From: Candidatus Kuenenbacteria bacterium
GTDB lineage: Bacteria > Patescibacteriota > Patescibacteriia > UBA2196 > GWA2-42-15
Assembly (NCBI GenBank): GCA_012797775.1
Contig: JAAZOM010000023.1
Span: 1-60,339 of the forward strand
Direction of reading: 5' to 3'
Length of the DNA stretch: 60,339 nucleotides
Shown: in pieces, positions 13,377 to 60,214 of the stretch
How positions within the stretch are numbered: position 1 is the first letter of the stretch
Layout of the letters: the number at the start of each line of letters is the position of its first letter
Position numbers and translations under genes: made by a program
The notes under the pieces: model-generated
Database searches by the model: none
Told to the model about the DNA's origin: nothing
What the model saw: the letters and a program-made list of their open reading frames with translations, nothing else

Positions 13377-13419
13377 TCAACAAAAAACCGTCCTATCAGC
13401 GGCCTTAATTGAAAAATTT

Positions 13420-13451
13420 ATTGGAAATTGGAAATTAGAAATTGGGAATTG
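13420..13451. repeat. Heptanucleotide tandem array
   Basis: ATTGGAA ATTGGAA ATTAGAA ATTGGGA ATTG, located just downstream of the corA stop. Confidence 0.6.
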
Positions 13452-13454
13452 TAT

Positions 13455-15021: not shown

Positions 15022-15027
15022 TTTATT

Positions 15028-18868: not shown

Positions 18869-19372
18869 TTATTTCATCGTTGCCTCTATCGAGAAATCTA
18901 TATTGTTGCGCCGCAACAAGTTTGACACCGGTGACTTGATGTCCGCCACCAATGCAGAATTTCTCAAATTATCCTCAAGTTTTAAATAATCCGCCCTACT
19001 CTCTGCCAGGCCATATAGCATTATTTTTTTATTTTCTTTACTTAGTTCCAGAGAGTTTATTTTTATATTTTCTGGCACTAGTGCTATCACATCTTTCAAT
19101 AAGACAGACCACTTCAAATAATCTTTTTGTAATTCTATTATTTGCCCCATTTTTTTATTTATCTCATCTACCGCATTCTCATCGGTTGTCGGAGCGTATT
19201 TGGCCATATTTTCTATTCGATAATTCAGATATTTTTGGCCAAAGAAAAAAACTATAGCTATCAACACTACCACCACAAATATTGCCAGGACGCTGTTGGC
19301 CACCTCGGCAGCCAGCATGTCTTTTTTTATTTGTTCTTTTTCTTTTTCGCTAAGCAGGTTTAGTCTAATCAT
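18869..19372 (-). CDS. pilN: PilN-like pilus assembly protein
   Basis: MIRLNLLSEKE N-terminus followed by a single TM, as in PilN. It overlaps the end of pilM by 8 nt. Confidence 0.6.
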   Translation of the reverse strand: MIRLNLLSEKEKEQIKKDMLAAEVANSVLAIFVVVVLIAIVFFFGQKYLNYRIENMAKYAPTTDENAVDEINKKMGQIIELQKDYLKWSVLLKDVIALVPENIKINSLELSKENKKIMLYGLAESRADYLKLEDNLRNSALVADIKSPVSNLLRRNNIDFSIEATMK

Positions 19373-20480
19373 TTTTTTCTAAGTAGTTTCTAAGGGCCAG
19401 CCCAATAGCCGTTGTATATGATAATAACCCTTCCCTTTTTTCTGGTTTTGTTTCTATATTTTTCAATGGGTCACCATATTCCACTTTCCGACCAAGCCTA
19501 TCTTCAAGTATTCCGTCAAGATTAAACATATTGGCTCCGCCTCCGCACAAAACAATCTCCAGACTGCTGGTATCTTTACCAAAATGGGTTTGATAAAAAT
19601 TATCAGCATTTATTATTTCATTTATCAATTCATCGATGTTGTTGTTTATAATCTTTAATACCGCCCCCTTGCACCTCTTGGGGTTTGTGCCACAAATTAT
19701 CTTTGCCTTTTCAGCCTCGTCTTCGCTCAGCGACAACTCTCTTGATATTTTGTCAGTAATATTTTTGCCCGATATTTTGTTGAGGTTGTTGGTAAACTGG
19801 ATAAAGCCCTCATCAACCAAAATCAGGCTGGTTCTTGTCGCACCGAAATCAACAATTATTTTTGGGGGATAATCACGATTTTTGTTTTTGGGGCTATCTT
19901 TTTTGTTTATTAGCTTTGATAGCCAATTGATATCTTTTGTCTTGTTTTCCTCGGCCAAAACACTCCTAGCTATTGCTTGGGCCTCTATTTCCAAAGCAGC
20001 AACACCCACTCCGGCCATTTTGCAAACATTAGTGTATTCTTCGGCTACCGATTGTGGCACCACACCTACTAAAAATTTTTTATTTTTTTGGTCTTCATTA
20101 TTACCTTGCCAGTCCATTTGCACATCTTCAGACGATATGGGCATATGCCTCGGCAGCTCCTCCCTGATAGTTTCTTTCACGGGCTGATTTTTTTCAGGGA
20201 TCTCTATGACTTTTATAAAAGTTTTGGTCTCGGGCAACGACAAAACAGCATACTTGCTGGTAAATTTTTTTTCTGATTTTTCCAGAATTTTTTTTATTAT
20301 TTCTGCCACTCCCTCTTCATTTTTTATCTCCCCATCTTCTATATAGCCCAAAGGCACAGCGGCTGAGCCCATCGCCCTTATATATTTTTTCCCAGCCCTT
20401 ATCCCTATTTCTATTGCTTTTATAGACAAATCAGAGATGTCTAGGCCAAATATTTTTTTTGGTGAACCAATAAGGCGCAT
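19365..20480 (-). CDS. pilM: Type IV pilus assembly ATPase-fold protein PilM
   Basis: Actin-like fold with GLDISDLSIKAIEI near the N-terminus and DFGATRTS/GGGA phosphate motifs. Confidence 0.8.
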   Translation of the reverse strand: MRLIGSPKKIFGLDISDLSIKAIEIGIRAGKKYIRAMGSAAVPLGYIEDGEIKNEEGVAEIIKKILEKSEKKFTSKYAVLSLPETKTFIKVIEIPEKNQPVKETIREELPRHMPISSEDVQMDWQGNNEDQKNKKFLVGVVPQSVAEEYTNVCKMAGVGVAALEIEAQAIARSVLAEENKTKDINWLSKLINKKDSPKNKNRDYPPKIIVDFGATRTSLILVDEGFIQFTNNLNKISGKNITDKISRELSLSEDEAEKAKIICGTNPKRCKGAVLKIINNNIDELINEIINADNFYQTHFGKDTSSLEIVLCGGGANMFNLDGILEDRLGRKVEYGDPLKNIETKPEKREGLLSYTTAIGLALRNYLEKND

Positions 20481-20483
20481 ATT

Positions 20484-21986
20484 TTATTTTTCTGTCACCT
20501 CTTCCCACTTCAAAAATCTATATTCTCCGGTTGTGGGAAAGCTGGGCGGCGGATTATAATTTAAATTTGGGTCATAAATAGTTTCAGTATTGCGGTAGCC
20601 GGAGACGGTATTGCCACCAGCGTCAACCCATGACCAAGTCCAGATATTGTTTGTTATAATTGAGCCGTAGATTGTTATATTATTTCTCGATATATAATTT
20701 CTGGCGTTGGCTGGTACGGGGCGGGCACAGCCATTGCCATAACAGTAGTGCTTTCTGTATATCCGTCCCTTTTGGGCGAGCATAGCCGCATCTATTTCCA
20801 AAACATCGGGAGCAGCATAAAGAGGAATTATAATATCTGACTGGGAAACCAGTCCAAGGGTATTAGTATTGTCCCTAGAGACGTAAGTCAAATTTCCATT
20901 AATTCTTATTTTTGTTGTTTTGCCAGACTCTGGGAATTTGGCCGAGGCCAAAGTTGTTCTACCCTTTATCACCCCATTCACCCAAACATCGTCTTCTACA
21001 AAAATTATACCACAATTATTTGGTATCGCGTAGTTTCCCTCAAACTCTTCTCTCTCAAAATCATCAGTATCACGTATCCAGCCATTTCCATCATAACCCC
21101 AAACAGGATTTTCTACTTTTGTCACCCTATAAACATCAAAAGTGCCATTATCTTTGAATACAAAATGATAGCCCAAACCTCTTTGGGGCCAATAGCAGTC
21201 TGCCTTTGGCGCGCAACTCACTGTTTGTGATAGGGTCATTAGATTCCTAAGATCGATGGTCATGGCATTAAAATCTACATTATCACCAGGATATTGCCAT
21301 AAATTTTTATCACCACCCTCTCCCCAGACTCCACTGCACGTACAGCCATCCGGATTTACCCAACTGCAGTCTGGCGCAAGGGTATTACAGTTTGATTGAG
21401 TACAACCATGTTCACTACCGCAGATATAGGTTTCCTTTCGCGAAGAAGTTGTGTTATCATTTTGTCCGTCCATCCTTATCCCGCCGTTAGAGTGTACTGG
21501 CCCATGCAATGTTTCATTTTCTCCAAACCAGGCATTGGAGTTGGTCAGAAAAGCATAGGTTGACAAGGACTGCTTGCCATATTTCACTCTTATTTTTCTC
21601 TTCACATCTGGATCATTGTCCATATAGCCCGTCGACTCTATTGTTACAGCGTTGGAACAATCAACTTCCGGTGCCGTTATATTCAATTCATATTTTCCCA
21701 CAACATTGCCAAGATTATCTTTATAATCATGTATATATGGGCCCTCTTCTCCTGTCCCGTCCTGATAATCGCTCGGCGCGTGTATCAAATGCCATCTATA
21801 ATAATTTACCCCAGCCTCCGCCGCCGCCAAGGCTTTTTGCCAATTTATTTTTTTTAACCCAAGTTTGTGTTGCGAAGAAATAATGCCCGCAATACCGATC
21901 GCCACTACTGTGAAAAGGGTAGTAAAAACCAAGGCCATTATCAACATGCCGCCCCTCTGGTTTTTTATGAGATTATTTTTTTGCAT
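20484..21986 (-). CDS. Large PilX-N-like or pseudopilin-like protein (putative pilus-associated surface protein)
   Basis: QRGGMLIMALVFTTLFTVVAIGIAGI N-terminal segment, followed by a Cys/Asn/Gly-rich extracellular part. ATG 21986 is preferred over TTG 22010. Confidence 0.55.
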   Translation of the reverse strand: MQKNNLIKNQRGGMLIMALVFTTLFTVVAIGIAGIISSQHKLGLKKINWQKALAAAEAGVNYYRWHLIHAPSDYQDGTGEEGPYIHDYKDNLGNVVGKYELNITAPEVDCSNAVTIESTGYMDNDPDVKRKIRVKYGKQSLSTYAFLTNSNAWFGENETLHGPVHSNGGIRMDGQNDNTTSSRKETYICGSEHGCTQSNCNTLAPDCSWVNPDGCTCSGVWGEGGDKNLWQYPGDNVDFNAMTIDLRNLMTLSQTVSCAPKADCYWPQRGLGYHFVFKDNGTFDVYRVTKVENPVWGYDGNGWIRDTDDFEREEFEGNYAIPNNCGIIFVEDDVWVNGVIKGRTTLASAKFPESGKTTKIRINGNLTYVSRDNTNTLGLVSQSDIIIPLYAAPDVLEIDAAMLAQKGRIYRKHYCYGNGCARPVPANARNYISRNNITIYGSIITNNIWTWSWVDAGGNTVSGYRNTETIYDPNLNYNPPPSFPTTGEYRFLKWEEVTEK

Positions 21987-22127
21987 GGGGAGATGATTAG
22001 CAATAAACAATTAACAATTCGCAGTGGCCACATTATTTTTATTAATTGTCCGCTGTTTGTTATTATTATATCATATTTTTCTTTGTGTTATAATATTTAT
22101 ATAAATTAATATTATAAAAATATTATT

Positions 22128-24661: not shown

Positions 24662-25654
24662 ATGAAAGTCCCTCCACTCATAAAAAAAATTGAATCAGCT
24701 GGATTACTTGGTCGCGGTTGTGGTACTTTTCCTTCCTATCAAAAATGGCTGGCGGTTTTGAATGCGCCAGGCAGAGAAAAATATATTGTGGCCAACTGTT
24801 CTGAATCTGAGCCTGGCATTTTTAAAGATGAATTTATTTTAGACCGCTATCCAGAGCGCCTGATTGATGGCATTCTTCTCGCCATGAAAGCTCTTGGAGC
24901 CAAAAAGGGTTTTATTTATCTCAATCCCAAATATTATCAAAAGTTCCGCAAAAAATTGATGCTATTCATCGGCGCCAATAATATCGAACTTTTCGCCAAG
25001 CCAGCCGCTGATTATATTGGCGGCGAAGAAACCGCCGCCCTAAACTTGATGGAGGGTGCTCGTGAAGAAGCGCGTCTGCGTCCTCCCTATGTCACCGCCG
25101 CTGGTCTTTTCGGTCGGCCCACACTAGTGAATAATTGTGAAACTTTTTATGACGTTTCTTTGATAAATGAAGGTTTGTACCAACATGAAAGATTTTTTTG
25201 TATCAGCGGCGATGAATTTCCGAGAAACGTTTATTCTTTCCCCGAAAAATTCACTGTCAAAGAAGCACTTTTAAAAAGTGGCCATTATCCCAGATTTCCG
25301 TTTTTTGTTCAGCTCGGAGGTGCTATGGCTGGAGCTTGTCTACGTGATAACCAACTTGATATCCCCATTCAGCATTATTCTGGCCTGATCATCCACCGCC
25401 TGGATACCGATGAGAAAAAATTGTTTGACTACTGGCTGTCATTTTTCATGCGCGAATCCTGCGGCAAGTGCGTGCCTTGCCGGGAAGGGACTTATCGGCT
25501 TTATGAGTTATTCCAAAAAGATGAAGTCGGCAGCCAATTATTTTGGGACATTATCAATTCCATGCAAAAAACCACCATTTGCTCCCTTGGTAAATTTGCG
25601 CCCACGGCAATTGCTAGTTATCTAAACAACATCAAAAGATTAAAAAGTAATTAA
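24662..25654 (+). CDS. NuoF/HydB-like flavoprotein subunit (short, divergent)
   Basis: YIVANCSESEPGIFKD, YIGGEETAAL and the C-terminal 4Fe-4S motif ESCGKCVPCREG. The FMN loop reads GRGCGTFP. Confidence 0.75.
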   Translation: MKVPPLIKKIESAGLLGRGCGTFPSYQKWLAVLNAPGREKYIVANCSESEPGIFKDEFILDRYPERLIDGILLAMKALGAKKGFIYLNPKYYQKFRKKLMLFIGANNIELFAKPAADYIGGEETAALNLMEGAREEARLRPPYVTAAGLFGRPTLVNNCETFYDVSLINEGLYQHERFFCISGDEFPRNVYSFPEKFTVKEALLKSGHYPRFPFFVQLGGAMAGACLRDNQLDIPIQHYSGLIIHRLDTDEKKLFDYWLSFFMRESCGKCVPCREGTYRLYELFQKDEVGSQLFWDIINSMQKTTICSLGKFAPTAIASYLNNIKRLKSN

Positions 25655-25659
25655 TCTCC

Positions 25660-27582
25660 ATGCCAGCCAACTCTATACTTATCAATAATAAAAATTACTC
25701 ATTCCGACCGGGCCAGACCATCCTAGATGTCTGTTTGGATAATAATATTTTTATCCCCGCTCTCTGCAAACATCCAGATTTGTCTATTCAGGGCAAATGT
25801 CGAGTTTGTTTGGTGGAAATTAAAGGTAGGGGACTAGCCACTTCGTGCTCTACCCCAGCTGAGAATGGCATGGTTATTAATACTAATAGCGAAGAAGTCG
25901 CCAAAGCTAGGCAGACCAACCTAGAGATGATCTATGCCGAGCACATAGAAAAATGTGGCAGCTGTATTCAGGAGCACAATTGCGCCTTGAAAAGATATGC
26001 GGCTCGCTTCGGTTTGAGCCTGACGCGCTTTCATGACAGAAAATCATCAAGTCCTATCTGGCAGCTCGGTGCTTTTTCCTCATCCGAGATCAAAAAAAGG
26101 CGCCAGCTTATTGATAAAAATTTTAAAGGAAAAAAAGAAAAAACTTTTCGGCAAAATCAGCTCGAAACGCAAAGTTCCGGCTTTGTCGAATTTGATAGTA
26201 CCAAATGTATTGATTGCGGTATCTGCACCGAAGTCTGCCGTGACAAGCAGACAGTTGATTTTTATGAAACTGTTGGCAAGGGATACCAGACGCAAACCAA
26301 ACCGACTGATGATGAATCCAAAGATTGTGTTTATTGCGGTCAATGTATTGTCCACTGCCCTGTCGGAGCTATTCAGGGCGTGCCTCATTGGCCAAAAGTG
26401 GAGGAATTATTAAAAAATAAAAAAAAGCATGGTAAATTAATTGTTGGCCAAATTGCCCCTTCCATCCGTGTTAGTATTGGAGAGGAATTTGGTCTACCTT
26501 ATGGCCAAGTAGTCACCGGTCAGTTGTCTGCCAGCCTGAAAAAACTAGGTTTTGATGCCGCCTTTGACGTGACCGTTGGCGCTGATTTTACCACTTACGA
26601 AGAAGCACGCGAATTACTCCATTGGTTGGGAAAAGGCAAACCTCGCCCCATGATTACTTCTTGTTGTCCCGGCTGGGTGAAATTCTGTGAATTTTATTTT
26701 CCTGAATTTGTTTCTCATTTGACCAGCACTCGTTCCCCCGAAATAATTTCCGGCGTTTTGGCCAAAACCCATTGGGCCAAAATAAAGAAAGTAAAACCCG
26801 AGGACATTATCGTCGTTTCTATTATGCCCTGCACAGCCAAAAAGCAGGAAATCGGTCTTTTGCGCCACCGACTGCCAAATGGCCTGCCCGCTGTTGACTA
26901 TATTCTGACTACGCGCGAATACGCCTATCTTTTAAAGCGCAAAAAAATTGATTTTCCAAGTCTTCCATCTCGGCCCATGGACAATCCCTTGGGTGTTTCC
27001 TCGGGCGCTGGTGTTATTTATGGCGCTTCTGGTGGCGTCATGGAGTCAGCTCTACGCACTGCCGAATATTTTCTAAGTCTGAAAAAATCTGGTCGCGAAC
27101 TACAAGAAATAATTCTTGGGACCAAGGGCCAGTGCCGCAATCTCAAAACCCCGCTAAATTCAAAAAGGATTGAATTTAAAGATGTCCGCGGTGATCAGGG
27201 CATCAAAGAAGCAGCCGTAAATCTGGCTGGCACGAAATTAAAAGTCGCCGTGGTCAATGGCCTAGGTAATGCTCGCCGTATTTTAGAATCTATCCGCGAC
27301 AAAAAAGCCAAATACGATTACATTGAAATCATGGCCTGCCCCGGCGGCTGTATTGGCGGAGGCGGCCAGCCAGTACCAGTTTCCGCCGCCATCAGGAAAA
27401 AAAGAGCCGCCGCTCTTTATGAAGTCGACCGCCAATTGCCAGTTCACTCTGCTCACACCAATGAGCTTTTACTCAAAACTTATTGTAGTTATTTTCAGGG
27501 CGATGAAAAATTAATTGAAGAACTCCTGCATTGCCGTTATGAAATTAATCCTCGTTCCGGTTACCAAGTAGCCAAAAGTTAG
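25660..27582 (+). CDS. hydA: [FeFe]-hydrogenase catalytic subunit
   Basis: N-terminal 2Fe-2S ferredoxin-like part, CIDCGICTEVC and CVYCGQCIVHCP clusters, and H-cluster motifs TSCCPGWV, MPCTAKK and ACPGGCIGGGGQP. Confidence 0.85.
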   Translation: MPANSILINNKNYSFRPGQTILDVCLDNNIFIPALCKHPDLSIQGKCRVCLVEIKGRGLATSCSTPAENGMVINTNSEEVAKARQTNLEMIYAEHIEKCGSCIQEHNCALKRYAARFGLSLTRFHDRKSSSPIWQLGAFSSSEIKKRRQLIDKNFKGKKEKTFRQNQLETQSSGFVEFDSTKCIDCGICTEVCRDKQTVDFYETVGKGYQTQTKPTDDESKDCVYCGQCIVHCPVGAIQGVPHWPKVEELLKNKKKHGKLIVGQIAPSIRVSIGEEFGLPYGQVVTGQLSASLKKLGFDAAFDVTVGADFTTYEEARELLHWLGKGKPRPMITSCCPGWVKFCEFYFPEFVSHLTSTRSPEIISGVLAKTHWAKIKKVKPEDIIVVSIMPCTAKKQEIGLLRHRLPNGLPAVDYILTTREYAYLLKRKKIDFPSLPSRPMDNPLGVSSGAGVIYGASGGVMESALRTAEYFLSLKKSGRELQEIILGTKGQCRNLKTPLNSKRIEFKDVRGDQGIKEAAVNLAGTKLKVAVVNGLGNARRILESIRDKKAKYDYIEIMACPGGCIGGGGQPVPVSAAIRKKRAAALYEVDRQLPVHSAHTNELLLKTYCSYFQGDEKLIEELLHCRYEINPRSGYQVAKS

Positions 27583-29120: not shown

Positions 29121-30449
29121 ATGGATTCTCAAATTAAGAAAATATTAGCTCGGGAAATTTTGGATTCCCGTGGCGATCCCACCATTGAAGTATCTGTTAC
29201 TTTGGAAAATGGCCTTACTCGCGTTGCCTCTGTACCATCTGGCGCTTCGACTGGCATTCACGAGGCAGTGGAATTGCGCGATGGTGACAAAAAGCGTTAC
29301 GGTGGCAAAGGTGTCCTCCGAGCTGTCAAAAATGTCAACGAAAAAATCAATAAATTTCTGACTGGCTTTGACGTGCTCGACCAAGAGAAGATTGATCAGA
29401 AAATGATTGATATGGACGGCAGTGCCAATAAAGAAAATCTGGGTGCTAATGCCATGCTTGGAGTCTCCCTCTCCATAGCCAGAACCGCCGCCACTTTCAA
29501 AAATATTCCTCTTTATCAATATTTGCGCCATGTTTTCAATCTTAAAAATCGGCCTAGCTTGCCCATCCCACTGTTTAATGTCTTTAATGGTGGCAAACAT
29601 GCCGATACCAATTTAGACTTTCAGGAGTTTCATATTATCCCCATAATGAATACCAGCTTCAAAGAGCGCTTGCGCAGCGGTTCGGAAATTTTTCATGCTA
29701 TGGCGGCCGTTTTGAAAAATTACGGGCTAGATATAGATGTGGGCAACGAGGGTGGTTATGCTCCAAACATTGATTCTTCGGTCAAGGCGGTTGAATATAT
29801 TATGGAGAGTATTGATCAGGCCGGCTACAAAGCTGGTAAAGAAGTAGTTTTGGGCATGGATGCCGGCGCCTCGAGTTTTTACCTGCCCAAAGAACGTCTT
29901 TATAACTTTAGTTTGGATGAGTCATTTCTAGAATCCGACCAGCTTATTTATCTTTACCATGAGTGGTTTAAAAAATACCCATTTATTTTAATTGAGGACC
30001 CATTGGCCGAAGACGACTGGCACGCTTGGCAAAAAATGACCAAGGAATTCTCGGGATTAAAGCTCACCATACATAACTACCGCCTTGATGACAAAAAATT
30101 TATCAAATTACATGAAAAAAATCTTCGCCCGATCATTGTTGGTGATGATTTATTTACTACCAATACTGGGCGTCTTGGGGAGGGGATAAAGCTAGGCGTG
30201 GCCAATGCCGTGATCGTCAAACCCAATCAAATCGGCACCCTAACTGAAACAATTAAGTTTGCTCGTTTGGCCCAAAACAACGATTATCAGCTGGTAGTTT
30301 CTCATCGTTCCGGAGAGACATTTGATGATTTTATAGCTGATTTATCTGTGGCCCTCGGCGCCGAATTTATAAAGGCGGGCGCTCCTTCGCGAGGCGAGCG
30401 TGTTACCAAATACAACCGTTTATTAAAGATTGAAGAAGAACTAACCTAG
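29121..30449 (+). CDS. eno: Enolase
   Basis: SHRSGET, GDDLFTTN, IVKPNQIGTLTE and EILDSRG. Confidence 0.92.
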   Translation: MDSQIKKILAREILDSRGDPTIEVSVTLENGLTRVASVPSGASTGIHEAVELRDGDKKRYGGKGVLRAVKNVNEKINKFLTGFDVLDQEKIDQKMIDMDGSANKENLGANAMLGVSLSIARTAATFKNIPLYQYLRHVFNLKNRPSLPIPLFNVFNGGKHADTNLDFQEFHIIPIMNTSFKERLRSGSEIFHAMAAVLKNYGLDIDVGNEGGYAPNIDSSVKAVEYIMESIDQAGYKAGKEVVLGMDAGASSFYLPKERLYNFSLDESFLESDQLIYLYHEWFKKYPFILIEDPLAEDDWHAWQKMTKEFSGLKLTIHNYRLDDKKFIKLHEKNLRPIIVGDDLFTTNTGRLGEGIKLGVANAVIVKPNQIGTLTETIKFARLAQNNDYQLVVSHRSGETFDDFIADLSVALGAEFIKAGAPSRGERVTKYNRLLKIEEELT

Positions 30450-38339: not shown

Positions 38340-38378
38340 TGCCTGATTATTTAAAATATTTTTGGCGAATAAAATATC

Positions 38379-38409
38379 AAGATATTAAATATTGAATATT
38401 CAATATCTG
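38379..38409. repeat. Palindromic heptamer array
   Basis: AAGATATTAAATATTGAATATTCAATATCTG, with the units TTAAATA TTGAATA TTCAATA. The first 22 nt are identical to 44362-44383. Confidence 0.6.
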
Positions 38410-39183: not shown

Positions 39184-39196
39184 ACAAGGTGAAAGG

Positions 39197-39247
39197 TCCC
39201 GTGGTGAGGGGCGTTTGCGACGGGATCCCTCGCTCCGCTCAGGATAA
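39197..39247. repeat. GC-rich double-hairpin spacer element
   Basis: TCCCGT...ACGGGA and ATCCCTCGCTCCGCTCAGGAT. The reverse complement of 39225-39247 matches 59365-59387 inside tgt at 21 of 23 positions. Confidence 0.55.
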
Positions 39248-39258
39248 AATAAATATTT

Positions 39259-40965: not shown

Positions 40966-41156
40966 GGGATAATAATCAAGGCCCCTACCTCGCCGGCAGG
41001 CGGGCAAGATGCAATTTCCAAATAAGCATCAAGCTCCAAATTCAAAGCACAAAATAAATTTCAAGCATCAATATTCAAATAAATAATTGCTATTCTGAGT
41101 TTTGTTGATTGAGTTTTAAAATTAAGATTTATTTAAAAATTAAAAATTAAAAAATT
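40966..41156. repeat. Composite spacer with a GC hairpin core followed by about 150 nt of degenerate heptamer words
   Basis: CCCCTACCTCGCCGGCAGGCGGGCAAGAT, then ...GCATCAA GCTCCAA ATTCAAA GCACAAA..., then ATTTAAA AATTAAA AATTAAA. It shares words with the cysS and GT insertions. Confidence 0.55.
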
Positions 41157-41666
41157 ATGAAATTGGTCTTAATGATGGCCATCACCCTCGATGGTAAGAT
41201 CGCCAAACATTCCACCCAGCTGGCCGACTGGACTTCCCAAGCTGACAAAAAAATATTTGTCGAGGAAACCAAAAATGCCGGCGTGATTATCATGGGTAAA
41301 ACGACCTATGAAACTATTGGCAAGCCTTTGCCCGGCCGGCTAAATATTGTTTTGGACAAAAATCCGGACACCAGCAAAAATATTGCCGGCTCTTTGGAAT
41401 ATACCAATTTAGCACCCCAAGAATTGCTGGCTGATTTATCTGCCCGTGGTTTTGAGAAAGTTATTCTCGGCGGCGGCGCCACGATCAATGGTTTGTTTCT
41501 CAAAGAAAATTTAATCGATGAAATCTGGCTGACTATTGAGCCAAAAATTTTTGGCGAGGGCCTCTCGCTCTTCAAAGACGCGGATGTTGATTTGGAGTTG
41601 GAATTATTAGAAGTCAGAAATTTGTACAAAAATGTGATACAAGTCAGATATAAAGTTGCTAAATAG
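41157..41666 (+). CDS. Dihydrofolate reductase-like protein (RibD C-terminal domain family)
   Basis: MAITLDGKIA, GKTTYE and ILGGGATING. It lies downstream of thyA. Confidence 0.7.
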   Translation: MKLVLMMAITLDGKIAKHSTQLADWTSQADKKIFVEETKNAGVIIMGKTTYETIGKPLPGRLNIVLDKNPDTSKNIAGSLEYTNLAPQELLADLSARGFEKVILGGGATINGLFLKENLIDEIWLTIEPKIFGEGLSLFKDADVDLELELLEVRNLYKNVIQVRYKVAK

Positions 41667-43187: not shown

Positions 43188-44333
43188 ATGAAAATTGCTC
43201 ACCTAATCTGTAAATTTCCCCCCTACCGTGGCGGCATGGGCAATGTCGCATATGAGCAGGTAAAACGCCTGGCCGAAATGGGCCACGAGGTGACGGTTTT
43301 TACTTTGGATCAAAAAGAAAAATTAGACCCTCAAACTATTAATTTTAAAATAGAATATTTAAATCCCTTATTACGCCTGGGTAATGGCGGTTTTTGTCCA
43401 CAGATTATTAAAAAGCTAAAAGACTTTGATGTTATTCAATTACATTATCCATTTTTTGGCGTGCAGGAAGTTTTGTGGCTGGGTAAAAAATTGGGTTTAA
43501 TTAAAGCCAAATTAGTTATTACTTACCACATGGATGCCAGCTTCGATAATTGGTTTTTGAAATTATTAAGTTTTAAATCATGGTTGATTCGCCGCAGTTT
43601 ATTCAAAATAGCCAAGCAGGTTTGCTCGGCTTCACTAGATTATGTCAGGCATTCCAAGATAAAAAATATTTACCATAAATACCAAGATAAATTTGTAGAA
43701 ATTCCTTTTGGGATCAGCCACTCGCCAGATCAAATAAGCCGCGAGAGATTGGAAAAAGTAAAACAGCAAATTCATTGGCAGGGTGGAGAAAAAAATATTT
43801 TATTTGTCGGCAATCTGGATCGCGCTCATTATTTCAAAGGTGTTGATATTTTACTAAAAGCATTTTACAAGTTACAGGTTACAAGTTACAAGTTGCTAAT
43901 TATTGGCGACGGTGATCTCCGTTTCACTTACGAAAAGCAAGCAGAAGAATTAAAAATTTCCGATCGTGTTTATTTTGCCGGTCGTGTTTCTGATGAAGAT
44001 TTACCTTGTTATTATTATCTTTCTGACGTAGTTGTCCTGCCGTCAATCACCAAAGCCGAGGCTTTTGGACTGGTTTTGGCCGAAGCCGAGAGTTTTGGCA
44101 AACCAGTTATCGCTTCCGACTTGCCCGGCGTCAGGAGTGTGGTGGGTGAGGCAGGTTTATTAGCAAAGCCTGGCGATATTGACGATTTGGCTGAAAAGCT
44201 TAAAATAATTTTATCCAATGAAAATCTGCGTCAGCAATTTTCTGCTGCCGGTTTGAACCAAGTCAAAGCAAAGTATAATTGGGATGAACATGTTGAAAAA
44301 CTTAACCAACTATATAAGAAAACGGGGGAGTAG
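43188..44333 (+). CDS. Glycosyltransferase family 4 (GT-B)
   Basis: C-terminal E..FG.V..EA motif (EAFGLVLAEAESFGKPVIASD) and an N-terminal Gly-rich loop. Confidence 0.8.
   Translation: MKIAHLICKFPPYRGGMGNVAYEQVKRLAEMGHEVTVFTLDQKEKLDPQTINFKIEYLNPLLRLGNGGFCPQIIKKLKDFDVIQLHYPFFGVQEVLWLGKKLGLIKAKLVITYHMDASFDNWFLKLLSFKSWLIRRSLFKIAKQVCSASLDYVRHSKIKNIYHKYQDKFVEIPFGISHSPDQISRERLEKVKQQIHWQGGEKNILFVGNLDRAHYFKGVDILLKAFYKLQVTSYKLLIIGDGDLRFTYEKQAEELKISDRVYFAGRVSDEDLPCYYYLSDVVVLPSITKAEAFGLVLAEAESFGKPVIASDLPGVRSVVGEAGLLAKPGDIDDLAEKLKIILSNENLRQQFSAAGLNQVKAKYNWDEHVEKLNQLYKKTGE
43865..43896. repeat. In-frame heptamer array inside the GT4 gene
   Basis: TTACAAG TTACAGG TTACAAG TTACAAG TTGC, encoding YKLQVTSYKLL. 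Confidence 0.6.
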
Positions 44334-44361
44334 AAGCCAGCCTAACAATTTATTTTTGATG

Positions 44362-44407
44362 AAGATATTAAATATTGAATATTAAATATTTAATATTCAA
44401 TATCCTG
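44362..44407. repeat. Palindromic heptamer array, the longer allele of the 38379 element
   Basis: Same ends as 38379-38409 with an extra AAATATTTAATATT (14 nt, two units) at 44384-44397. Confidence 0.6.
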
Positions 44408-45343: not shown

Positions 45344-46555
45344 ATGGATATTCCCTCACAAAAAACTACCAAAGTTTTAGTTTTTTCTCTTACTTATTTA
45401 CCCTTTATCGGCGGGGCAGAAATTGCCCTGAAAGAAATTACTGACCATCTAGAAAATTTTGAATTTCATCTAATTACGGCTAAAATTAGCCCAGATTTAG
45501 CATCAGAAGAAAAAATAGGCAATATTCATATCAGAAGGCTTGGTCATGGGGGCAAGTTAGATAAATATTTATATCCGCTGCGTGCTTATTCGCTGGCGCA
45601 CAAACTACACTCCCAATATAATTACAATTTAATCTGGGCCATGCTGGAAACCTGGGGTGGTATTGCCGCTCTGTTTTTTAAATTTCGTTTCCCAAAAATA
45701 AAATATCTGCTCACCATGCAGAGTGGTGATTCAGATTGGTTTATCAGGTTGCGGACTTGGTTTTGGTGGCCGCTTTATAAAATGGTTTACACCCGCTCTG
45801 ATCATATCCAAGTTATCAGTAGCTGGCTCGCCAATCGCGCCAGAAAATATGGGTATAAAAAAGAAATTAGCATCGTGCCAAATGGGGTGGATTTAGAAAA
45901 ATTTAAAACTCCTACCGCGCCGGCCCGCTTCAACGCGAGGCGAGCAGGCGAGCAAAATTCAAAATTAAAAATTAAAGAAGAACTAAGTATTAAGCCAGAA
46001 GATAAGATTATTCTCACTGACTCTCGTCTCGTCGTCAAAAATGGTGTCGCTGACCTGATAAAGTCATTCCACTTACTAGTTACTAGTTACAAGTTACCAG
46101 TTACTTTGTTTATCCTTGGTTCCGGTCCCCTAGAAAAACAATTAAAACAATTGGCTACTCAGCTGGGTGTTCAAGATAAAATAATTTTTCTAGGCACTGT
46201 ACCTTATGAAAAGATCGAAGATTATTACCAAGTCGCCGATGTTTTTGTGCGCCCTTCTTTGACCGAGGGTTTCGGCAATGTTTTTGTCCAAGCCATGGCT
46301 GCTGGACTACCGGTGGTGGCCACTCCGGTCGGCGGTATTATTGATTTTCTCAAAGAAGGAGAGACAGGCTGGCTGTGCCAAGTAAAAAAACCAGAGAGTA
46401 TTGCAGAAAAAATAAAATATATTTTAGATGAGCGCAACCAGGCTGAAGTTGAGCGAGTTGTTGTTGGCGCTCAAAAAATGGTGGCGGAAAAATATAGCTG
46501 GGATTCAGTCTCTGACCAGATGAAAGCTATATTTAATTCTCTAATTAATACATGA
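45344..46555 (+). CDS. Glycosyltransferase family 4 (GT-B)
   Basis: EGFGNVFVQAMAAGLPVVATPVGG motif. It overlaps the next gene by 4 nt. Confidence 0.8.
   Translation: MDIPSQKTTKVLVFSLTYLPFIGGAEIALKEITDHLENFEFHLITAKISPDLASEEKIGNIHIRRLGHGGKLDKYLYPLRAYSLAHKLHSQYNYNLIWAMLETWGGIAALFFKFRFPKIKYLLTMQSGDSDWFIRLRTWFWWPLYKMVYTRSDHIQVISSWLANRARKYGYKKEISIVPNGVDLEKFKTPTAPARFNARRAGEQNSKLKIKEELSIKPEDKIILTDSRLVVKNGVADLIKSFHLLVTSYKLPVTLFILGSGPLEKQLKQLATQLGVQDKIIFLGTVPYEKIEDYYQVADVFVRPSLTEGFGNVFVQAMAAGLPVVATPVGGIIDFLKEGETGWLCQVKKPESIAEKIKYILDERNQAEVERVVVGAQKMVAEKYSWDSVSDQMKAIFNSLINT
45909..45979. repeat. GC-core plus heptamer element embedded in frame in the GT4 gene
   Basis: CTCCTACCGCGCCGGC matches 40982-40997 at 14 of 16 positions. 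AGGCGAGCAAAAT resembles 40998-41010. It continues TCAAAAT TAAAAAT TAAAGAA. Confidence 0.6.
46073..46107. repeat. In-frame heptamer array inside the second GT4 gene
   Basis: TTACTAG TTACTAG TTACAAG TTACCAG TTACTTT, encoding LLVTSYKLPVT. Confidence 0.6.
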
Positions 46556-51038: not shown

Positions 51039-51160
51039 TTCTGAAATTTTTAATTTTCAATTTTCAAACAATTTTCAATACTCCAATTCTTCAATTAATT
51101 GAGACATTAAGAAATTGTAACATTCATTGAAAATTGAAAATTCAGTAATTGAAAATTAAC
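51039..51160. repeat. Inverted heptamer-array element (long AT-rich hairpin)
   Basis: The left arm (AATTTTC-type units) and right arm (GAAAATT-type units) are complementary. It shares an exact 17-mer with 57880-57896 and a 14-mer with 1-14. Confidence 0.65.
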
Positions 51161-51164
51161 TCAA

Positions 51165-53622: not shown

Positions 53623-56493
53623 ATGTTTAACATACCTGATAAAGAAAGAGAAATCTTAAAATTTTGGGCTGAACACAAAATTTTTGAAAAATCGGTGGAC
53701 AAAAAAGCACCGGACTATGTTTTTTATGATGGCCCGCCCTTTGCTACCGGCACCCCTCACTATGGTCATATTGTGGCTAGTATTATGAAGGATGTGGTGC
53801 CGCGCTACTGGACGATGAGGGGCTTTAGGGTAGAACGTCGCTGGGGCTGGGACTGCCATGGCCTGCCGATCGAAAATATCGTGGAAGCAGAAATGGGCAT
53901 CAAGCGCAAAAAAGAAATTGAAGAAATCGGCGTCGACAAATTCAACGAATCTTGTCGTAGCAAGGTTTTGGTCTATGCTGATGAGTGGCGCAAGGTGATT
54001 GAAAGACTTGGCCGCTGGGTGGATATGGACAACGACTACAAGACTATGGATAAAGATTATATGGAATCTATCTGGTGGGTTTTTAAAGAATTGTGGGACA
54101 AGGGTTATATTTATGAAAGCTATAAATCCATGCATATCTGCCCTCGTTGTGAGACCACCCTTTCGCAGTCAGAAATCACCGAGGGGTATAAAGATATTGA
54201 AGATGTCTCTGTTGTGGCCAAATTTGAGTTAGTAAACGAGCCGGGCACCTTTGTTCTCGCCTGGACTACTACACCCTGGACTTTACCGGGCAATGTCGCT
54301 TTGGCCATTGGCGAACACGTTGATTATATTAGAGTCGAATCCGAAGGCGCCAAATATATTTTGGCCAAAAACAATCTGGAAAAAATATTTTCCGGTCGGG
54401 AATATAAAGTTTTAAATGAAGTTAAGGCCGAGGAATTAGTTGGTCTAAAATATCAGCCCCTCTTTAACTACTACCAGAATACTAATTTAGAAAACAAAGA
54501 AAATCTTTATACCATTCAATCGGCTGACTTTGTGACTGTCGAAGACGGCACTGGCGTTGTCCACATTGCTCCAGCTTTTGGCGAGGACGATATGAATCTC
54601 GGCCGAGATAAAAAGTTGCCCTTTATCCAGCATGTTGCTTATGACGGCACTCTCAGGCCAGAGGTTAAAGACCTTTATGGCTTGGAGGTTAAACCCAAAA
54701 ATGATCATACCAGCACTGACCAAAAAATAGTTGATTTTCTTGCCAATAAGGGCTTGGTTTTTACCACGGAAAATTTTATCCACTCTTATCCTCATTGCTG
54801 GCGCTGTGATTCACCTCTTTTAAACTATGCCACTAGCTCATATTTTGTAGATGTCACCAAAATAAAACCACAAGCCTTGGAAACCGCCAAAAATATCAAC
54901 TGGACGCCAGCACATATCAAAGAAGGACGTTTTGGTAATTGGCTGGAAGGTGCCAAAGACTGGTCTATTTCCCGTCAGCGTTTCTGGGGGTCGGTTATAC
55001 CGATCTGGGTTTGTGAGAAGTGTAGCGACAAAAAAGTCATGGGTAGCATCAGAGAACTTGAAGAATTGAGCGGGGAGCACATTGAAGATCTTCACAAACA
55101 CATCATGGATCAAATTAAATTTCCTTGCTCTTGTGGTGGTATTATGAAACGCATCCCCGATGTTTTGGATTGTTGGTTTGAATCTGGCTCCATGCCTTAC
55201 GCCCAACTCCATTATCCCTTTGAGAACAAGGAACAATTCGAAGCCAATTTCCCAGCCCAGTTTATCGCCGAGGGAGCCGACCAGACACGCGCTTGGTTTT
55301 ATTATATGCACATTCTCGCCAACGCCCTCAAGGAAACCAATGCTTTCAGAAATGTGATCGTCAATGGCATTGTTTTGGCTGAGGACGGCAAGAAAATGAG
55401 CAAGAAATTGCGCAACTACCCCGACCCCATGGAGGTAATGGAAAAATATGGTGCCGATGCTGTGCGTTATTATCTCGCTACGGCGCCGGTGATGAAGGCC
55501 GACGACCTTTGTTTTTCAGAGCGTGGGGTTGATGAGGTGGTGAAAAAAGTTATCATGATTCTCCTAAACGTCTTTTCTTTCTATCAGATGTACGCCAAGC
55601 AGGAAAGCAATAATACAAAAATACAAGAACATAAAAAAGAAGAATTAAAAAATATTTTAGATCGCTGGATCGTAGCTAAATTAGAAACCCTCAAGCGTGA
55701 TATTGCCAAAGCTTATGATGAATATGATCTGGTTCGCGCCAGCCGGCCGCTAGGTGAGTTTATTGATGAGCTCTCTACTTGGTATCTGCGCCGCTCACGC
55801 GAGCGTTTCAAGGGTGAAAACGAAACTGACAAAAATGACGCGCTAGACACTTTACGCTATGTACTTTTGACATTGTCCAAGCTCATGGCTCCGGTTACGC
55901 CCTTTATTGCCGAGCACCTTTACCAAGAATTGAAAGGAGACAAAGAATCTGTGCACTTGGAAACTTGGCCAATAGCTAATGAAAAATTGATTGATCAAAA
56001 AGTTTTGGACCAGATGGCTTCTGTTCGTCAAGTGGTTGAGATGGGTCTAGCCAAACGCGCTGAAGCTGGTATTAAAATTCGCCAACCATTGGCAAAACTC
56101 AAAACTCAATCAACAAAACTCAAGATTGAAAAAGAATATTTGGATTTAATCAAAGATGAATTAAATGTCAAAAAAGTTGAACAAATTGATGGCGAGGGAG
56201 AGTTGGCCGTAGAACTAGACACTACTATTACCGATGAGTTGAAAGAAGAGGGGATAGTACGCGAGCTCGTGCGAACCATCAATAATATCCGCAAAGACAT
56301 GAAGCTGACCATCGGCGATAGAGTAAAAATTAATTATTCTAACCACAATCAATTATTGAATAAGGTTTTGGAAAAATATAGTGAAGAATTAAAGAAAAGC
56401 ACCCTAGCCGACAGTCTGGAGAAATCAAGTGAACAGCTGGAAACATTTAAAATTAATGACCTAGAAATAGGATTAAAAATAGAAAAAATATAA
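53623..56493 (+). CDS. ileS: Isoleucine--tRNA ligase
   Basis: PHYGH (HIGH), KMSKKL (KMSKS), WTTTPWTLPGN editing-domain motif. 956 aa. Confidence 0.92.
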   Translation: MFNIPDKEREILKFWAEHKIFEKSVDKKAPDYVFYDGPPFATGTPHYGHIVASIMKDVVPRYWTMRGFRVERRWGWDCHGLPIENIVEAEMGIKRKKEIEEIGVDKFNESCRSKVLVYADEWRKVIERLGRWVDMDNDYKTMDKDYMESIWWVFKELWDKGYIYESYKSMHICPRCETTLSQSEITEGYKDIEDVSVVAKFELVNEPGTFVLAWTTTPWTLPGNVALAIGEHVDYIRVESEGAKYILAKNNLEKIFSGREYKVLNEVKAEELVGLKYQPLFNYYQNTNLENKENLYTIQSADFVTVEDGTGVVHIAPAFGEDDMNLGRDKKLPFIQHVAYDGTLRPEVKDLYGLEVKPKNDHTSTDQKIVDFLANKGLVFTTENFIHSYPHCWRCDSPLLNYATSSYFVDVTKIKPQALETAKNINWTPAHIKEGRFGNWLEGAKDWSISRQRFWGSVIPIWVCEKCSDKKVMGSIRELEELSGEHIEDLHKHIMDQIKFPCSCGGIMKRIPDVLDCWFESGSMPYAQLHYPFENKEQFEANFPAQFIAEGADQTRAWFYYMHILANALKETNAFRNVIVNGIVLAEDGKKMSKKLRNYPDPMEVMEKYGADAVRYYLATAPVMKADDLCFSERGVDEVVKKVIMILLNVFSFYQMYAKQESNNTKIQEHKKEELKNILDRWIVAKLETLKRDIAKAYDEYDLVRASRPLGEFIDELSTWYLRRSRERFKGENETDKNDALDTLRYVLLTLSKLMAPVTPFIAEHLYQELKGDKESVHLETWPIANEKLIDQKVLDQMASVRQVVEMGLAKRAEAGIKIRQPLAKLKTQSTKLKIEKEYLDLIKDELNVKKVEQIDGEGELAVELDTTITDELKEEGIVRELVRTINNIRKDMKLTIGDRVKINYSNHNQLLNKVLEKYSEELKKSTLADSLEKSSEQLETFKINDLEIGLKIEKI

Positions 56494-57321: not shown

Positions 57322-57864
57322 ATGGTTTTGGTATCACAATTGATTTGGCTCTTTTTGCCAGTTGGTATCGCCAATATTTTTGCCTCACTTTCACGGCACA
57401 TCTTGCCCCAATGGATTTATCCCTTGGATTTTAATAAGGAATTTAGAGGCAAAAGAATTTTTGGTGGCCACAAAACAATCCGCGGCTTTATTTTTGGGGT
57501 ATCAGCCGCTTTTTTGTTTTTTATTTTTCAAATATATTTATATAATACTTGCCCAGCCATCAACAATATTAGTCTTATTAACTATAGTGATTCAAGTATT
57601 CTCATTGGATTTATTATGGGGCTGGGCGCGCTTTTGGGCGACGCTCTCAAAAGTTTTTTCAAGCGCCAAATCAATATTCCCCCTGGCCGGCCATGGTTCC
57701 CTTTTGACCAGCTAGACTGGGTAGTCGGCGGCACTCTTTTGAGCTGGCCTTTTGTCAGTGTTTCCAGTTATACAATTATCACCGCCATCGGCTTGGGTTT
57801 ATTATTTCACTTATTATTCAAAGTTATTGGTTATATTTTTAGAGTAGACAAGACGATAATTTAA
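57322..57864 (+). CDS. CDP-archaeol synthase-like (CarS/DUF46 family) membrane protein
   Basis: LPVGIANIFA, FGGHKTIRGFIFG, GDALKSFFKRQINIPPG and PFDQLDWVVG match the CarS-family pattern (from memory). About 5 TM. Confidence 0.65.
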   Translation: MVLVSQLIWLFLPVGIANIFASLSRHILPQWIYPLDFNKEFRGKRIFGGHKTIRGFIFGVSAAFLFFIFQIYLYNTCPAINNISLINYSDSSILIGFIMGLGALLGDALKSFFKRQINIPPGRPWFPFDQLDWVVGGTLLSWPFVSVSSYTIITAIGLGLLFHLLFKVIGYIFRVDKTII

Positions 57865-57972
57865 CAATTTTCAATTTATAATTTTCAAACAATTTTATAA
57901 TGTCTTAATTTTTGAATTGAATAATTAGGACATTGTTTTGAAATTAAAAATTAGAAATTAAAAATTGTTTTT
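57865..57972. repeat. Inverted heptamer-array element, homologous to 51039-51160
   Basis: The left arm CAATTTTCAATTTATAATTTTCAAACAATTTT is complementary in vocabulary to the right arm GAAATTAAAAATTAGAAATTAAAAATTG. It shares a 17-mer with 51059-51075. Confidence 0.65.
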
Positions 57973-59056: not shown

Positions 59057-60214
59057 ATGTTTAAAGTTTTAAAACAATCAAAAAAATCCCGTGCCCGCTT
59101 GGGCCTTTTGAAAACGCCTCATGGAGACATTGAGACGCCTTTTTTTATGCCCATCGCTACCAAGGGCTCGGTCAAAGCGCTGACCCCGGAAGATCTCAAA
59201 AATATCGGGGCGAGTATTATCCTTTCCAATACTTATCATCTTTATTTACAACCCGGTTTGGATGTTTTGAAAAAATTTGGCGGACTGCATAAATTTATGG
59301 GTTGGAACGGCCCGATTCTGACCGATAGTGGCGGTTACCAGGTTTTTAGTTTGAGTAATAAAGTTTATCCTGAGCGGAGTGAAGGATTGCGTGGTCCCTA
59401 TTCTTCCCTTGTTAAAATAAACAAGGCTGGTGTAGAATTTCGTTCTTTCCTCGATGGCTCCAAACATTTATTTACCCCAGAGAGTGTTCAGCAGATCCAA
59501 GATGCCATCGGCTCAGACATAAAAATGGTCCTTGATGTCTGCTCACCTCATCCCTGTGCCAAAAAGCAAGCCGAAATTGATCTAAAGCTGACTCACGATT
59601 GGGCCAAGAGAGCGCTGGAATATCACCGCAGAACGCAAAACACAATTAGCAAAGATCAAAAAAATAAAAATCTTTTGTTTGGCATTATCCAAGGGTCAAC
59701 CTATAAAGACTTAAGATTAAACTCTGCCAAATTTTTATCTGGGCTTGATTTTGACGGCCTGGCTATTGGCGGTTTGGCTGTGGGCGAAGACAATAAAACA
59801 ATGTATCAGGTTTTAGATTATACTATTCCCGAACTGCCAGTTAACAAGCCGCGCTACCTCATGGGTGTGGGTAAACCAGAAAATATTATTGAAGCCATCA
59901 AAAGGGGAGTAGATATGTTTGATTGTGTCATCCCCACGCGCGAAGCGCGACACGGCCGGCTATATACCTTTAAAAATAATAAACTTTTGGGCAATTTTTA
60001 TAATGTTATAAACATTCTCAATTCAAAATATAAAAAAGACACCAAACCATTGGATAAAAGTTGTACTTGCGAGTTGTGTCAAAATTATAGCGCCGGCTAT
60101 TTACATCATCTGTTTAAAGCCGGTGAACCTCTAGCTTTGCGTCTAGCCACCTTGCACAATTTAGCTTTCTATGTTAAATTGATAAATCAAACAAAAAATA
60201 AGGAGCTTGTCTAG
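59057..60214 (+). CDS. tgt: Queuine/guanine tRNA-ribosyltransferase
   Basis: TDSGGYQV, LAIGGLAVGE, the CTCELC zinc site and GVDMFDCV. Confidence 0.92.
   Translation: MFKVLKQSKKSRARLGLLKTPHGDIETPFFMPIATKGSVKALTPEDLKNIGASIILSNTYHLYLQPGLDVLKKFGGLHKFMGWNGPILTDSGGYQVFSLSNKVYPERSEGLRGPYSSLVKINKAGVEFRSFLDGSKHLFTPESVQQIQDAIGSDIKMVLDVCSPHPCAKKQAEIDLKLTHDWAKRALEYHRRTQNTISKDQKNKNLLFGIIQGSTYKDLRLNSAKFLSGLDFDGLAIGGLAVGEDNKTMYQVLDYTIPELPVNKPRYLMGVGKPENIIEAIKRGVDMFDCVIPTREARHGRLYTFKNNKLLGNFYNVINILNSKYKKDTKPLDKSCTCELCQNYSAGYLHHLFKAGEPLALRLATLHNLAFYVKLINQTKNKELV
59357..59410. repeat. GC-hairpin element embedded in frame in tgt
   Basis: TTATCCTGAGCGGAGTGAAGGAT (59365-59387) matches the reverse complement of 39225-39247 at 21 of 23 positions. 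It encodes ..KVYPERSEGLRGPYSS.. Confidence 0.55.

Follow-up and report, generated by a model that had tools for sequence, protein, structure and literature searches.

How does a GC-rich segment of an intergenic spacer come to be translated in the middle of a glycosyltransferase gene? The question is raised by a 60,339-nucleotide (nt) stretch of DNA from Candidatus Kuenenbacteria bacterium (assembly GCA_012797775.1, contig JAAZOM010000023.1), here called the window; its genome has a GC content of ~42%. The gene concerned (45344..46555, + strand) encodes a GT4-family glycosyltransferase of 403 amino acids (aa) (Pfam Glycos_transf_1, 1.7e-41; Glyco_transf_4, 4.6e-16) and belongs to a conserved cluster of patatin, GT4 and GtrA-GT4 genes. 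According to the original prediction, made from the letters of the window, this gene contains the core of an element from the thyA-folA spacer followed by a tail of heptamers. We identified the core as a composite insertion of 42 nt (45911..45952, +) that is specific to this lineage and is translated in frame as the 14 aa PTAPARFNARRAGE. It is probably a miniature palindromic repeat, similar to repetitive extragenic palindromes (REPs), small dispersed repeats (SDRs) or Rickettsia palindromic elements (RPEs), that was inserted as mobile DNA and would be moved by an enzyme.

A 42-nt insertion translated in frame

The insertion was delimited by DNA alignment with orthologues. The DNA of five orthologous loci was compared, all of which share the patatin / GT4 / GtrA-GT4 neighbourhood, and the segment is missing from the syntenic orthologues of the host gene at loci L002, L001, L125 and L272. 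An exact empty site is found in L272 (AAAACT|CAAAATTCAAAATTAAAAA). Its DNA reads ..ttcaaaact|caaaattcaaaattaaaaac.. where the window reads ..tttaaaact, the 42 nt and then caaaattcaaaattaaaaat.., and around the empty site its flanks equal those of the window, 6 nt to the left and 19 nt to the right. When the 42 nt are deleted in silico, KFKTQNSKLKIKEE is regained. The insert begins at base 1 of codon 190 and finishes with codon 203, and is thus codon-aligned. The L002 orthologue has 75% nucleotide identity to the window, and the insert is the sole indel of at least 4 aa between the two copies of the gene. Across ~13 orthologous gene pairs of the window and L002 there are just five indels of this size, three of which are GC-rich hairpin inserts, every one in a GT4 gene. 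In an alignment of 35 homologues, the nearest orthologue of full length (P0002, 73% aa identity) is without TPTAPARFNARRAGE and retains QKSKIKIKEEL. The segment is present in a fragment from a 99%-identical strain (P0003), with a single Ala/Ser change.

The original prediction had matched two blocks of the gene to the spacer. Positions 45909-45924 (CTCCTACCGCGCCGGC) do match 40982-40997 (CCCCTACCTCGCCGGC) at 14 of 16 positions and 45946-45958 (AGGCGAGCAAAAT) parallel 40998-41010 (AGGCGGGCAAGAT) at 11 of 13, with 21 additional nt between the two blocks in the gene. The predicted translation is also correct (..KTPTAPARFNARRAGEQNSKLKIKEE.., in the region ..KFKTPTAPARFNARRAGEQNSKLKIKEE.. of the open reading frame (ORF) 45344-46555). 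However, the limits of the blocks are not those of the element. The first 2 nt of the first block (CT in the gene, CC in the spacer) are flank, and so are the last 6 nt of the second (CAAAAT and CAAGAT), which also occur in relatives without the element.

The heptamer tail, which had been taken as part of the element, is an A/T-rich period-7 tract (CAAAATT CAAAATT AAAAATT AAAG.., 45953..45979, +) that encodes QNSKLKIKE. Tandem Repeats Finder (TRF) detects it at 45954-45976 with period 7, 3.3 copies and 93% matches. The tract is kept at the same place and in frame in every core-less orthologue examined (L002, L001, L125 and L272). The equivalent peptides are KFKNQKSKIKIKEE in L002 and KFKTQNSKLKTKEE in L272, whose DNA here is that of the window flanks. 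We conclude from its presence in orthologues lacking the core that the heptamer tract is the pre-existing host, or target, and does not belong to the insert; an equivalent peptide without the element exists for the tail and not for the core. Three TTCAAAA-type units, when translated, give just FK[TNI]QNSK.

The insert lies in the inter-domain linker between the two Rossmann domains of the enzyme. An AlphaFold2 model of the protein has a mean pLDDT of 90.9 and a pTM of 0.87, and its only internal stretch with pLDDT <50 (residues 191-204) is the insert, which follows the final strand of the N-terminal domain and precedes the first helix of the C-terminal one. Since the 42 nt are codon-aligned and free of stops, translation continues through them and adds 14 residues to a disordered loop of an enzyme that is presumably still functional. 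The gene has a second in-frame period-7 tract, (TTACNAG)n, identified by TRF and alignment at 46073..46105 (+), which encodes LLVTSYKLPVT; the related LQVTSYK is the translation of (TTACAAG)3. This tract (aa 243-253) is modelled as the end of a helix and a loop. Judging from the model, extra residues should be harmless at both sites.

Unrelated odd inserts, such as ..CHPELDSGSRD..MLKRVQHD.. and ..GRDAKFCVSTTG.., are found at a range of loops in other GT4 orthologues (P0057, P0107, P0055, P0079, P0075, P0084 and P0018), and have the appearance of translated copies from other families of palindromic repeats.

Nested modules of a dispersed family

The insert consists of three pieces, CCTACCGCGCCGG + CCCGCTTCAACGCGAGGCGAG + CAGGCGAG. 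Alignment with orthologues and comparison with the spacer identify the first (45911..45923, +) and the last (45945..45952, +) as the 5' and 3' arms of an outer module. In the loop of this outer module sits an inner module of 21 nt (45924..45944, +) that fits the family pattern CCCGCTTC-N3-14-GCGAGGCGAG and accounts for the additional 21 nt of the gene copy. A solo outer module of 21 nt, CCTACCTCGCCGGCAGGCGGG, is found in the thyA-folA spacer (40984..41004, +), where it borders a degenerate period-7 tract on the 5' side. It is an exact 21-nt indel relative to the syntenic spacer of L002, which reads ..ccaagaaa|caagatacaatttcc.. where the window reads ..tcaaggcc, the module and caagatgcaatttcc... 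The outer module of the gene is identical to the spacer module at 19 of 21 positions, so that the GC-rich core in the glycosyltransferase is indeed the repeated element of the spacer. The form of the outer module is a 21-nt imperfect hairpin, CCTACCKCGCCGG|CAGGCGRG. The short consensus of the inner module is identical to it at 15 of 21 positions, and the composite therefore resembles a family member nested in its sibling. Both modules are members of the dispersed, sequence-conserved family described below.

A precise presence/absence polymorphism of the inner module was found between close relatives at the second site in the glycosyltransferase gene (LLVT^SYKL). This site is empty in the window and holds a related 30-nt hairpin insert in L125. 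In L001 it holds 54 nt, comprising the 30-nt insert and a 24-nt inner module, CCCGCTTCGACTCAGCGAGGCGAG. The two genes are 91.6% identical, and the 24-nt module is the only gap in the gene body (the alignment has an additional 8-nt gap at its extreme 3' end). No target-site duplication was found at the L001 site, at the spacer site or at the first site in the window gene (AAAACT|..|CAAAAT).

One genome per bacterial species was scanned for CCCGCTTC-N3-14-GCGAGGCGAG[AC]A, which yielded at least 120 loci. This is a biased sample in that [AC]A was required 3' of the element, and with these two bases fixed by the pattern 3' target preferences are unreadable from the scan. Of the 126 matches listed (123 loci plus the window), 95 are in contigs of GC <0.55; high-GC genomes were excluded from the family count because a GC-rich pattern arises in them by chance. 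Among the matches listed, carriers within the Patescibacteria are Levy-, Davies-, Curtiss-, Moran-, Komeili-, Buchanan-, Falkow-, Yanofsky-, Sung- and Kaiserbacteria and Saccharibacteria, and further carriers are Omnitrophota, Elusimicrobia, Sphingobacteriales, Melioribacter and uncultured Gammaproteobacteria. These labels are the titles of metagenome-assembled genome (MAG) records, which could include mis-binned contigs. One MAG of the Lentimicrobiaceae has at least 7 copies. The commonest arrangement among the matches listed, CCTGCCTGCCGG|CCCGCTTCGCCGGAGCTTCAGCGAGGCGAG|CAGGCAGG, is the same nesting of inner in outer module as in the window.

The exact spacer 21-mer was found amid unrelated flanks in low-GC metagenome contigs, of which there are at least 7. 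Two of these copies are nested in other palindromes, one at the apex of GGATTCCCG..CGGGAATGACA and the other inside CCTGCCTGC..GGCAGGCAGG. A degenerate 21-nt pattern proved too loose for metagenomes, as ~105 of 120 matches were chance occurrences in high-GC DNA and ~ten low-GC matches were informative. A mismatch-tolerant search for diverged copies mostly returned the same copies on the opposite strand because the module is quasi-palindromic.

One alternative explanation is an ordinary variable linker, altered by a chance indel with coincidental similarity to the spacer, or an assembly artefact. Linker length does vary among GT4 homologues, and short GC-rich matches can arise by chance. One such string, AGGCGGGCGCTCCTTCGCGAGGCGAGCG in the enolase gene (30373-30400), was tried as a copy of the element and rejected, since it encodes the conserved C-terminal enolase motif ..IKAGAPSRGERVTKYN.. 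and is a chance resemblance, not an insertion. A weak third match of the 16-mer at 43220 was likewise rejected, as it is the PPYRGG motif of a GT4 gene. Besides this weak match, the window has the 16-mer only at 45909-45924 and 40982-40997, where shuffled sequences have a mean of 0.5 matches and never 3. Several observations argue that the match between gene and spacer is not due to chance: the identity of the modules at 19 of 21 positions, the recurrence of the identical 21-mer in unrelated contigs, and an exact match to a family pattern with at least 95 copies in low-GC contigs. In addition, an independent assembly of a 99%-identical strain from a separate ENA sample (L124) has the same insert with a single-nucleotide difference. 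At base 45917 the window has G where L124 and the spacer copy have T, and the 5' arm of L124 is identical to the spacer copy. We therefore regard a chance or artefactual origin as very improbable.

The inner module is 21, 24, 27 or 30 nt long in 87 of 102 copies (loci L004-L123). It had been proposed that lengths would be multiples of 3 in copies within coding sequence (CDS) only, which is not the case, as such lengths are found in 34 of 37 copies in CDS and in 53 of 65 copies outside CDS. A small number of successful subfamilies could account for the preference, as could adaptation to being in frame. The long inner forms resemble the short form with palindromic extensions. Modules also occur in tandem, L052 having four units of 30 nt. 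Arrays in which two to four 30-nt inner modules follow one another head to tail (L052, 4869-4990; L103, 2322-2380; L045, 3149-3230) recall the REP clusters known as BIMEs.

In Rfam no family matched the element, whether in the window (gathering threshold) or in seven loci that carry it (E<=1), and a limited literature search, which is not proof of novelty, found no account of such modules in Patescibacteria or across phyla. Viral contigs gave 24 matches, all of high GC and mostly chance, with no low-GC phage carrier among them. The canonical long inner module CCCGCTTCGCCGG[AC]GCTTCAGCGAGGCGAG was observed in the IMG/VR contigs L133, L136 (two copies), L138, L141 and L146 (GC 0.67-0.69), and in the cultured Chelativorans isolates L004, L013 and L016 (GC ~0.65). 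As these copies in high-GC viral contigs and Chelativorans are nested in palindromes, the family is not restricted to low-GC uncultured lineages.

The stem of the family has a conserved C.A mismatch and a G.T wobble. A variant in L002 restores both to Watson-Crick pairs. Such conservation across phyla, together with the repair of both positions in the variant, would fit a selected cis-acting signal, for example a structure that pauses translation or transcription between the glycosyltransferase domains or a binding site for a conserved host protein, whose recurrence would reflect function. Additionally, both sites in the glycosyltransferase are at domain or secondary-structure boundaries, and many copies of the family are right after genes or beside tRNAs. 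However, the closest orthologues of the same gene function without the insert, and the family occurs in both orientations, in all reading frames, and in unrelated genes and spacers. In the window copy the stem is broken by two substitutions, G for T at 45917 and A for G in TTCAAC of the inner module, and its folding does not surpass that of shuffled sequence. We consider such a signal improbable, and these substitutions and the shuffle-like folding are consistent with an old, decaying insertion that now evolves as a linker peptide.

Hairpin loops, heptamer tracts and genes as sites

Copies of the family show clear preferences in where they sit. The flanks of the inner module form a perfect stem of at least 8 base pairs in 15% of copies, compared with 0.07% of random positions. 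When the flanks are joined across the element, 10 of 93 copies (11%) show period-7 identity of at least 0.8, compared with 0.1% of random sites; the same test found no copies for periods 5, 6, 9 and 10 and one for period 8. Both tests optimise over small offsets, with random controls treated identically, and two stricter heptamer tests, in which a 21-28 nt repeat was required on one flank, showed little. In leuS the arrangement is CAATTTC CAATTTC|module|CAATTTC CAATTTC, and further examples are AACTTTG|module|AACTTTG and AAAAGTC|composite|AAAAGTC.

The GT4 genes alone provide three independent hairpin insertions in heptamer tracts, at the first site of the window gene, at the second site in L001 and L125, and in a paralogue in L002. 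The corresponding tract of the window is (TTACAAG)x4.3, identified by TRF at 43865..43894 (+), the homologous site in the paralogous GT4 gene 43188-44333. In L002 this site is occupied by a REP-like insertion with a GTAG tag, as found in the inserts GTAGGAACGCGCC..GGCGCGTTC of the paralogue. The L002 paralogue (5815-7089) contains two such in-frame GC-rich palindromes, GTAGGAACGCGCC[ac/gc]GGCGCGTTC, at 5974-6015 and 6592-6648, which are canonical REP-like elements within a gene of Patescibacteria and are translated as ..VGTRHGAF... The second of these (6592-6648) occupies the position that (TTACAAG)x4 holds in the paralogue of the window.

Among the tandem repeats of the window, period 7 dominates. 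Each tract has A/T-rich units that differ from those of other tracts, and most tracts are in spacers (13406-13456, 38372-38406, 41131-41157, 44353-44403, 51039-51162 and 57858-57972). Those within genes are at 11837-11859 (cysS), 43865-43894, 45954-45976, 46073-46105 and 56093-56109 (ileS). The spacer tracts are often just 5' of start codons or near tRNA-Glu, and several genic tracts are in frame. Over-representation of heptamer repeats in bacteria is already known (PMC4692102; TAACTGA repeats cited in PMC4853749). What the present data add is that heptamer tracts serve as landing sites for hairpin modules.

Copies occur in frame in essential genes. In total, 35 of 95 copies fall within long ORFs, with all three frames and both orientations represented, where an ORF is a long stop-free frame. 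The ten host ORFs checked by Pfam are all genuine housekeeping genes (leuS twice, argS, rpoB, topA twice, an ATP synthase subunit, transketolase, a P-type ATPase and a branching enzyme). Only 37% of copies are in CDS, compared with 75% of random positions, a depletion that is expected for selfish DNA.

Many copies are located directly after genes or beside tRNAs. The stem-compensated variant of L002, CCCGCCTCG..CGAGGCGGG, is found in a tRNA-Glu-like gene, where it separates the D arm from the anticodon stem. At 14510-15065 of this locus the variant CCCGCCTCGACTCGCGTCGACGCGAGGCGGG interrupts the tRNA-Glu(CUC)-like gene and bears a further nested module there. The same hairpin variant is also present in a duplicated 5' tRNA fragment, and these two insertions lie on either side of an intact tRNA-Glu and a small GIY-YIG ORF (14680-14940).

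The glycosyltransferase had been counted as the third gene of the window with spacer-element DNA in frame. This holds for tgt (59057-60214) at least, but the element family there is different from that in the glycosyltransferase. Compared with solved TGT structures, the tgt product has a 16-aa insertion, ..NKVYPERSEGLRGPYS.., and the underlying DNA (59364-59392, TTTATCCTGAGCGGAGTGAAGGAT..) matches, at 86% and in inverted orientation, a GC-rich element at 39220-39248 in the spacer 39184-39258.

Sites of this kind could also be filled by templated copying without an enzyme, through template switching at replication forks or short-patch gene conversion between hairpin or slipped structures. Heptamer tracts and hairpin loops would stall forks, and an ectopic copy, such as that in the spacer, would act as template. 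The precise junctions, the lack of target-site duplication and the proneness of the sites to slippage or hairpin extrusion are all compatible with such copying, as are the lack of a transposase in the window and the resemblance of the long inner forms to palindromic extensions of the short form. However, the mechanism needs microhomology between donor flank and target, and the flanks of different copies are unrelated. It also leaves unexplained the near-identical modules in different phyla and the sharply defined module ends. For these reasons we think templated copying unlikely, and favor insertion of a mobile palindromic repeat.

Relation to known repeats and a proposed mechanism

The present modules share several properties with REPs. 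The module is a 21-nt imperfect palindrome dispersed over many sites (REPs are GC-rich and 20-40 nt long), its stem has G.T pairs and conserved mismatches, and copies are single, paired or in tandem clusters, sometimes intragenic, without target duplication. RAYT transposases of the Y1/HUH type mobilise REPs, which fall into superfamilies tagged by GTAG or CGTC (Di Nocera et al. 2013, PMC3733652). Both intragenic REPs and REP families inside other small 'target' palindromes have been documented (PMC3733652). In contrast, the inner module starts with CCCGCTTC and ends with GGCGAG, the outer consensus is CCTGCCTGCCGG..CAGGCAGG, and neither has a 5' GTAG or CGTC on either strand. A CCTAC in the window was considered as the GTAG tag and rejected, as it is on the other strand and at the wrong end, and the family consensus is CCTGC. 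We have therefore not classed the element as a REP. Other differences are that module lengths are quantised at 21, 24, 27 and 30 nt, that the link to period 7 is strong, that no RAYT is seen in the window, and that the module sequence is common to several phyla, whereas REP families are usually specific to a species or genus. By analogy, REPs nevertheless appear to be the closest known system mechanistically.

In size and precision of insertion the closest appear to be SDRs. The SDRs of Nostocaceae, which Elhai and colleagues are said to have described in 2008, are reportedly hairpin-forming modules of ~21-27 nt that are regarded as mobile and are too small to encode anything. The resemblance to SDRs includes hairpin modules of 21, 24, 27 or 30 nt, precise empty and filled sites, nesting in palindromes, and hosts rich in tandem heptamers (STRR). 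Passages in two papers that cite the work state that SDR5 inserts between nt 3 and 4 of HIP1, and mention SDRs from Nostocaceae only (PMC5861425, PMC4390886). The sequences of the eight SDR families reported appear to differ from those of the present family, whose hosts among the matches listed are Patescibacteria, Omnitrophota, Bacteroidota and others, and not cyanobacteria. In-frame residence in essential genes and self-nesting are documented here for the present modules.

A third comparison is provided by RPEs, which Ogata and colleagues reportedly presented in 2000 as selfish palindromes of ~100-150 bp that are in frame in functional genes, including housekeeping genes, and are tolerated as surface peptides. 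The insert in the glycosyltransferase is similarly codon-aligned over its 42 nt, and elsewhere all of the 10 host ORFs checked are housekeeping genes. However, the modules of 21-30 nt are nested, cross-phylum and hosted by Patescibacteria, while RPEs are five times longer and known from Rickettsia only. GC clusters of yeast mitochondria, such as the optional 46-bp cluster in the var1 coding sequence, are also GC-rich palindromes that are optional between strains of an AT-rich genome. They too can be in frame and flanked by A/T-rich simple repeats, but they belong to a eukaryotic organelle, are unrelated in sequence and spread by gene conversion in crosses. [quoted passage not shown]

Tandem heptamers are known as the STRR of heterocystous cyanobacteria, GGGAATC in Xanthomonas and TAACTGA in Beggiatoaceae (PMC4692102, PMC4853749). 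As in those cases, period 7 is the dominant class of short tandem repeat in the window and is mostly intergenic. The units of the window, in contrast, are A/T-rich and vary by tract, several are in frame (3 units make 7 codons), and they act as landing sites.

We suggest that the modules would spread through a trans-acting enzyme that recognises a folded single strand, in analogy to the action of RAYT on REPs and of TnpA on IS200/IS605 (HUH transposition). Such a mechanism would fit the lack of duplication, the imperfect palindromes with conserved mismatches and the clusters of copies. Transposition of the IS200/IS605 type likewise leaves no target duplication. Hairpin loops and slipped heptamer tracts would be favored because they expose single-stranded DNA, and the composite in the glycosyltransferase would have landed in a pre-existing 7-nt tandem run that encoded a surface linker.

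A number of points weigh against insertion of a mobile palindromic repeat. No transposase, HUH or RAYT gene was found by Pfam among the ORFs of the window and no enzyme could be linked to the module family, so that the mobilising mechanism is conjecture. The family is without the GTAG or CGTC tag that defines the known REP superfamilies. The window itself has one inner and two outer copies (a count of the window only), and these fold no better than shuffles of the same composition (z = -0.36 and 0.10), unlike the family consensus composite, which folds at -17.6 kcal/mol (z = -2.8). The bias of the scan and the possible mis-binning of MAG contigs, both described above, count on the same side. 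Finally, the near-identity of a sequence of 21-30 nt across phyla is hard to obtain by vertical descent, and a conserved host function would also fit it.

More tentatively, the modules could be one face of a so far undescribed cross-phylum 'Russian-doll' mobile system. We hold this to be possible and somewhat doubtful. Its hairpin modules may have fixed ends and lengths that increase in 3-nt steps. They may insert into one another's loops and those of other hairpins, as well as into period-7 repeats and tRNA genes, and may enter essential genes in frame. The system may be driven by a conserved enzyme common to Patescibacteria, Omnitrophota, Bacteroidota and others. Its period-7 tracts may not be passive targets alone, and could be footprints or by-products of this machinery.

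Elsewhere in the window, the ORF 57322-57864, which adjoins recO, encodes a domain (PF01864, 5.7e-24) resembling CarS, the CDP-archaeol synthase, here in the genome of a bacterium. The regions 15028-17592, 19365-22010 and 24662-27582 encode a TraG/VirD4-type coupling protein, PilM and PilX-like pilus genes, and an [FeFe]-hydrogenase with a NuoF-like subunit.

Segments of this kind should in practice be masked in alignments, phylogenies and structure predictions. If the reading proposed here is true, they would also supply markers for strain typing, and the sharp module ends and defined target structures would offer an entry point to an enzyme of DNA transactions. The odd GC-rich peptides in the predicted proteomes of these groups (..PAGRQA.., ..ARFxxARRAG.., ..PLRRSxSEASRQ..) would be explained, and part of their well-known 'insertions in conserved genes' would be accounted for. 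Patescibacteria and several uncultured phyla would then carry mobile DNA an order of magnitude below the size of MITEs, which reshapes the surface loops of tRNA synthetases, RNA polymerase, topoisomerase and ATP synthase and interrupts tRNA genes.

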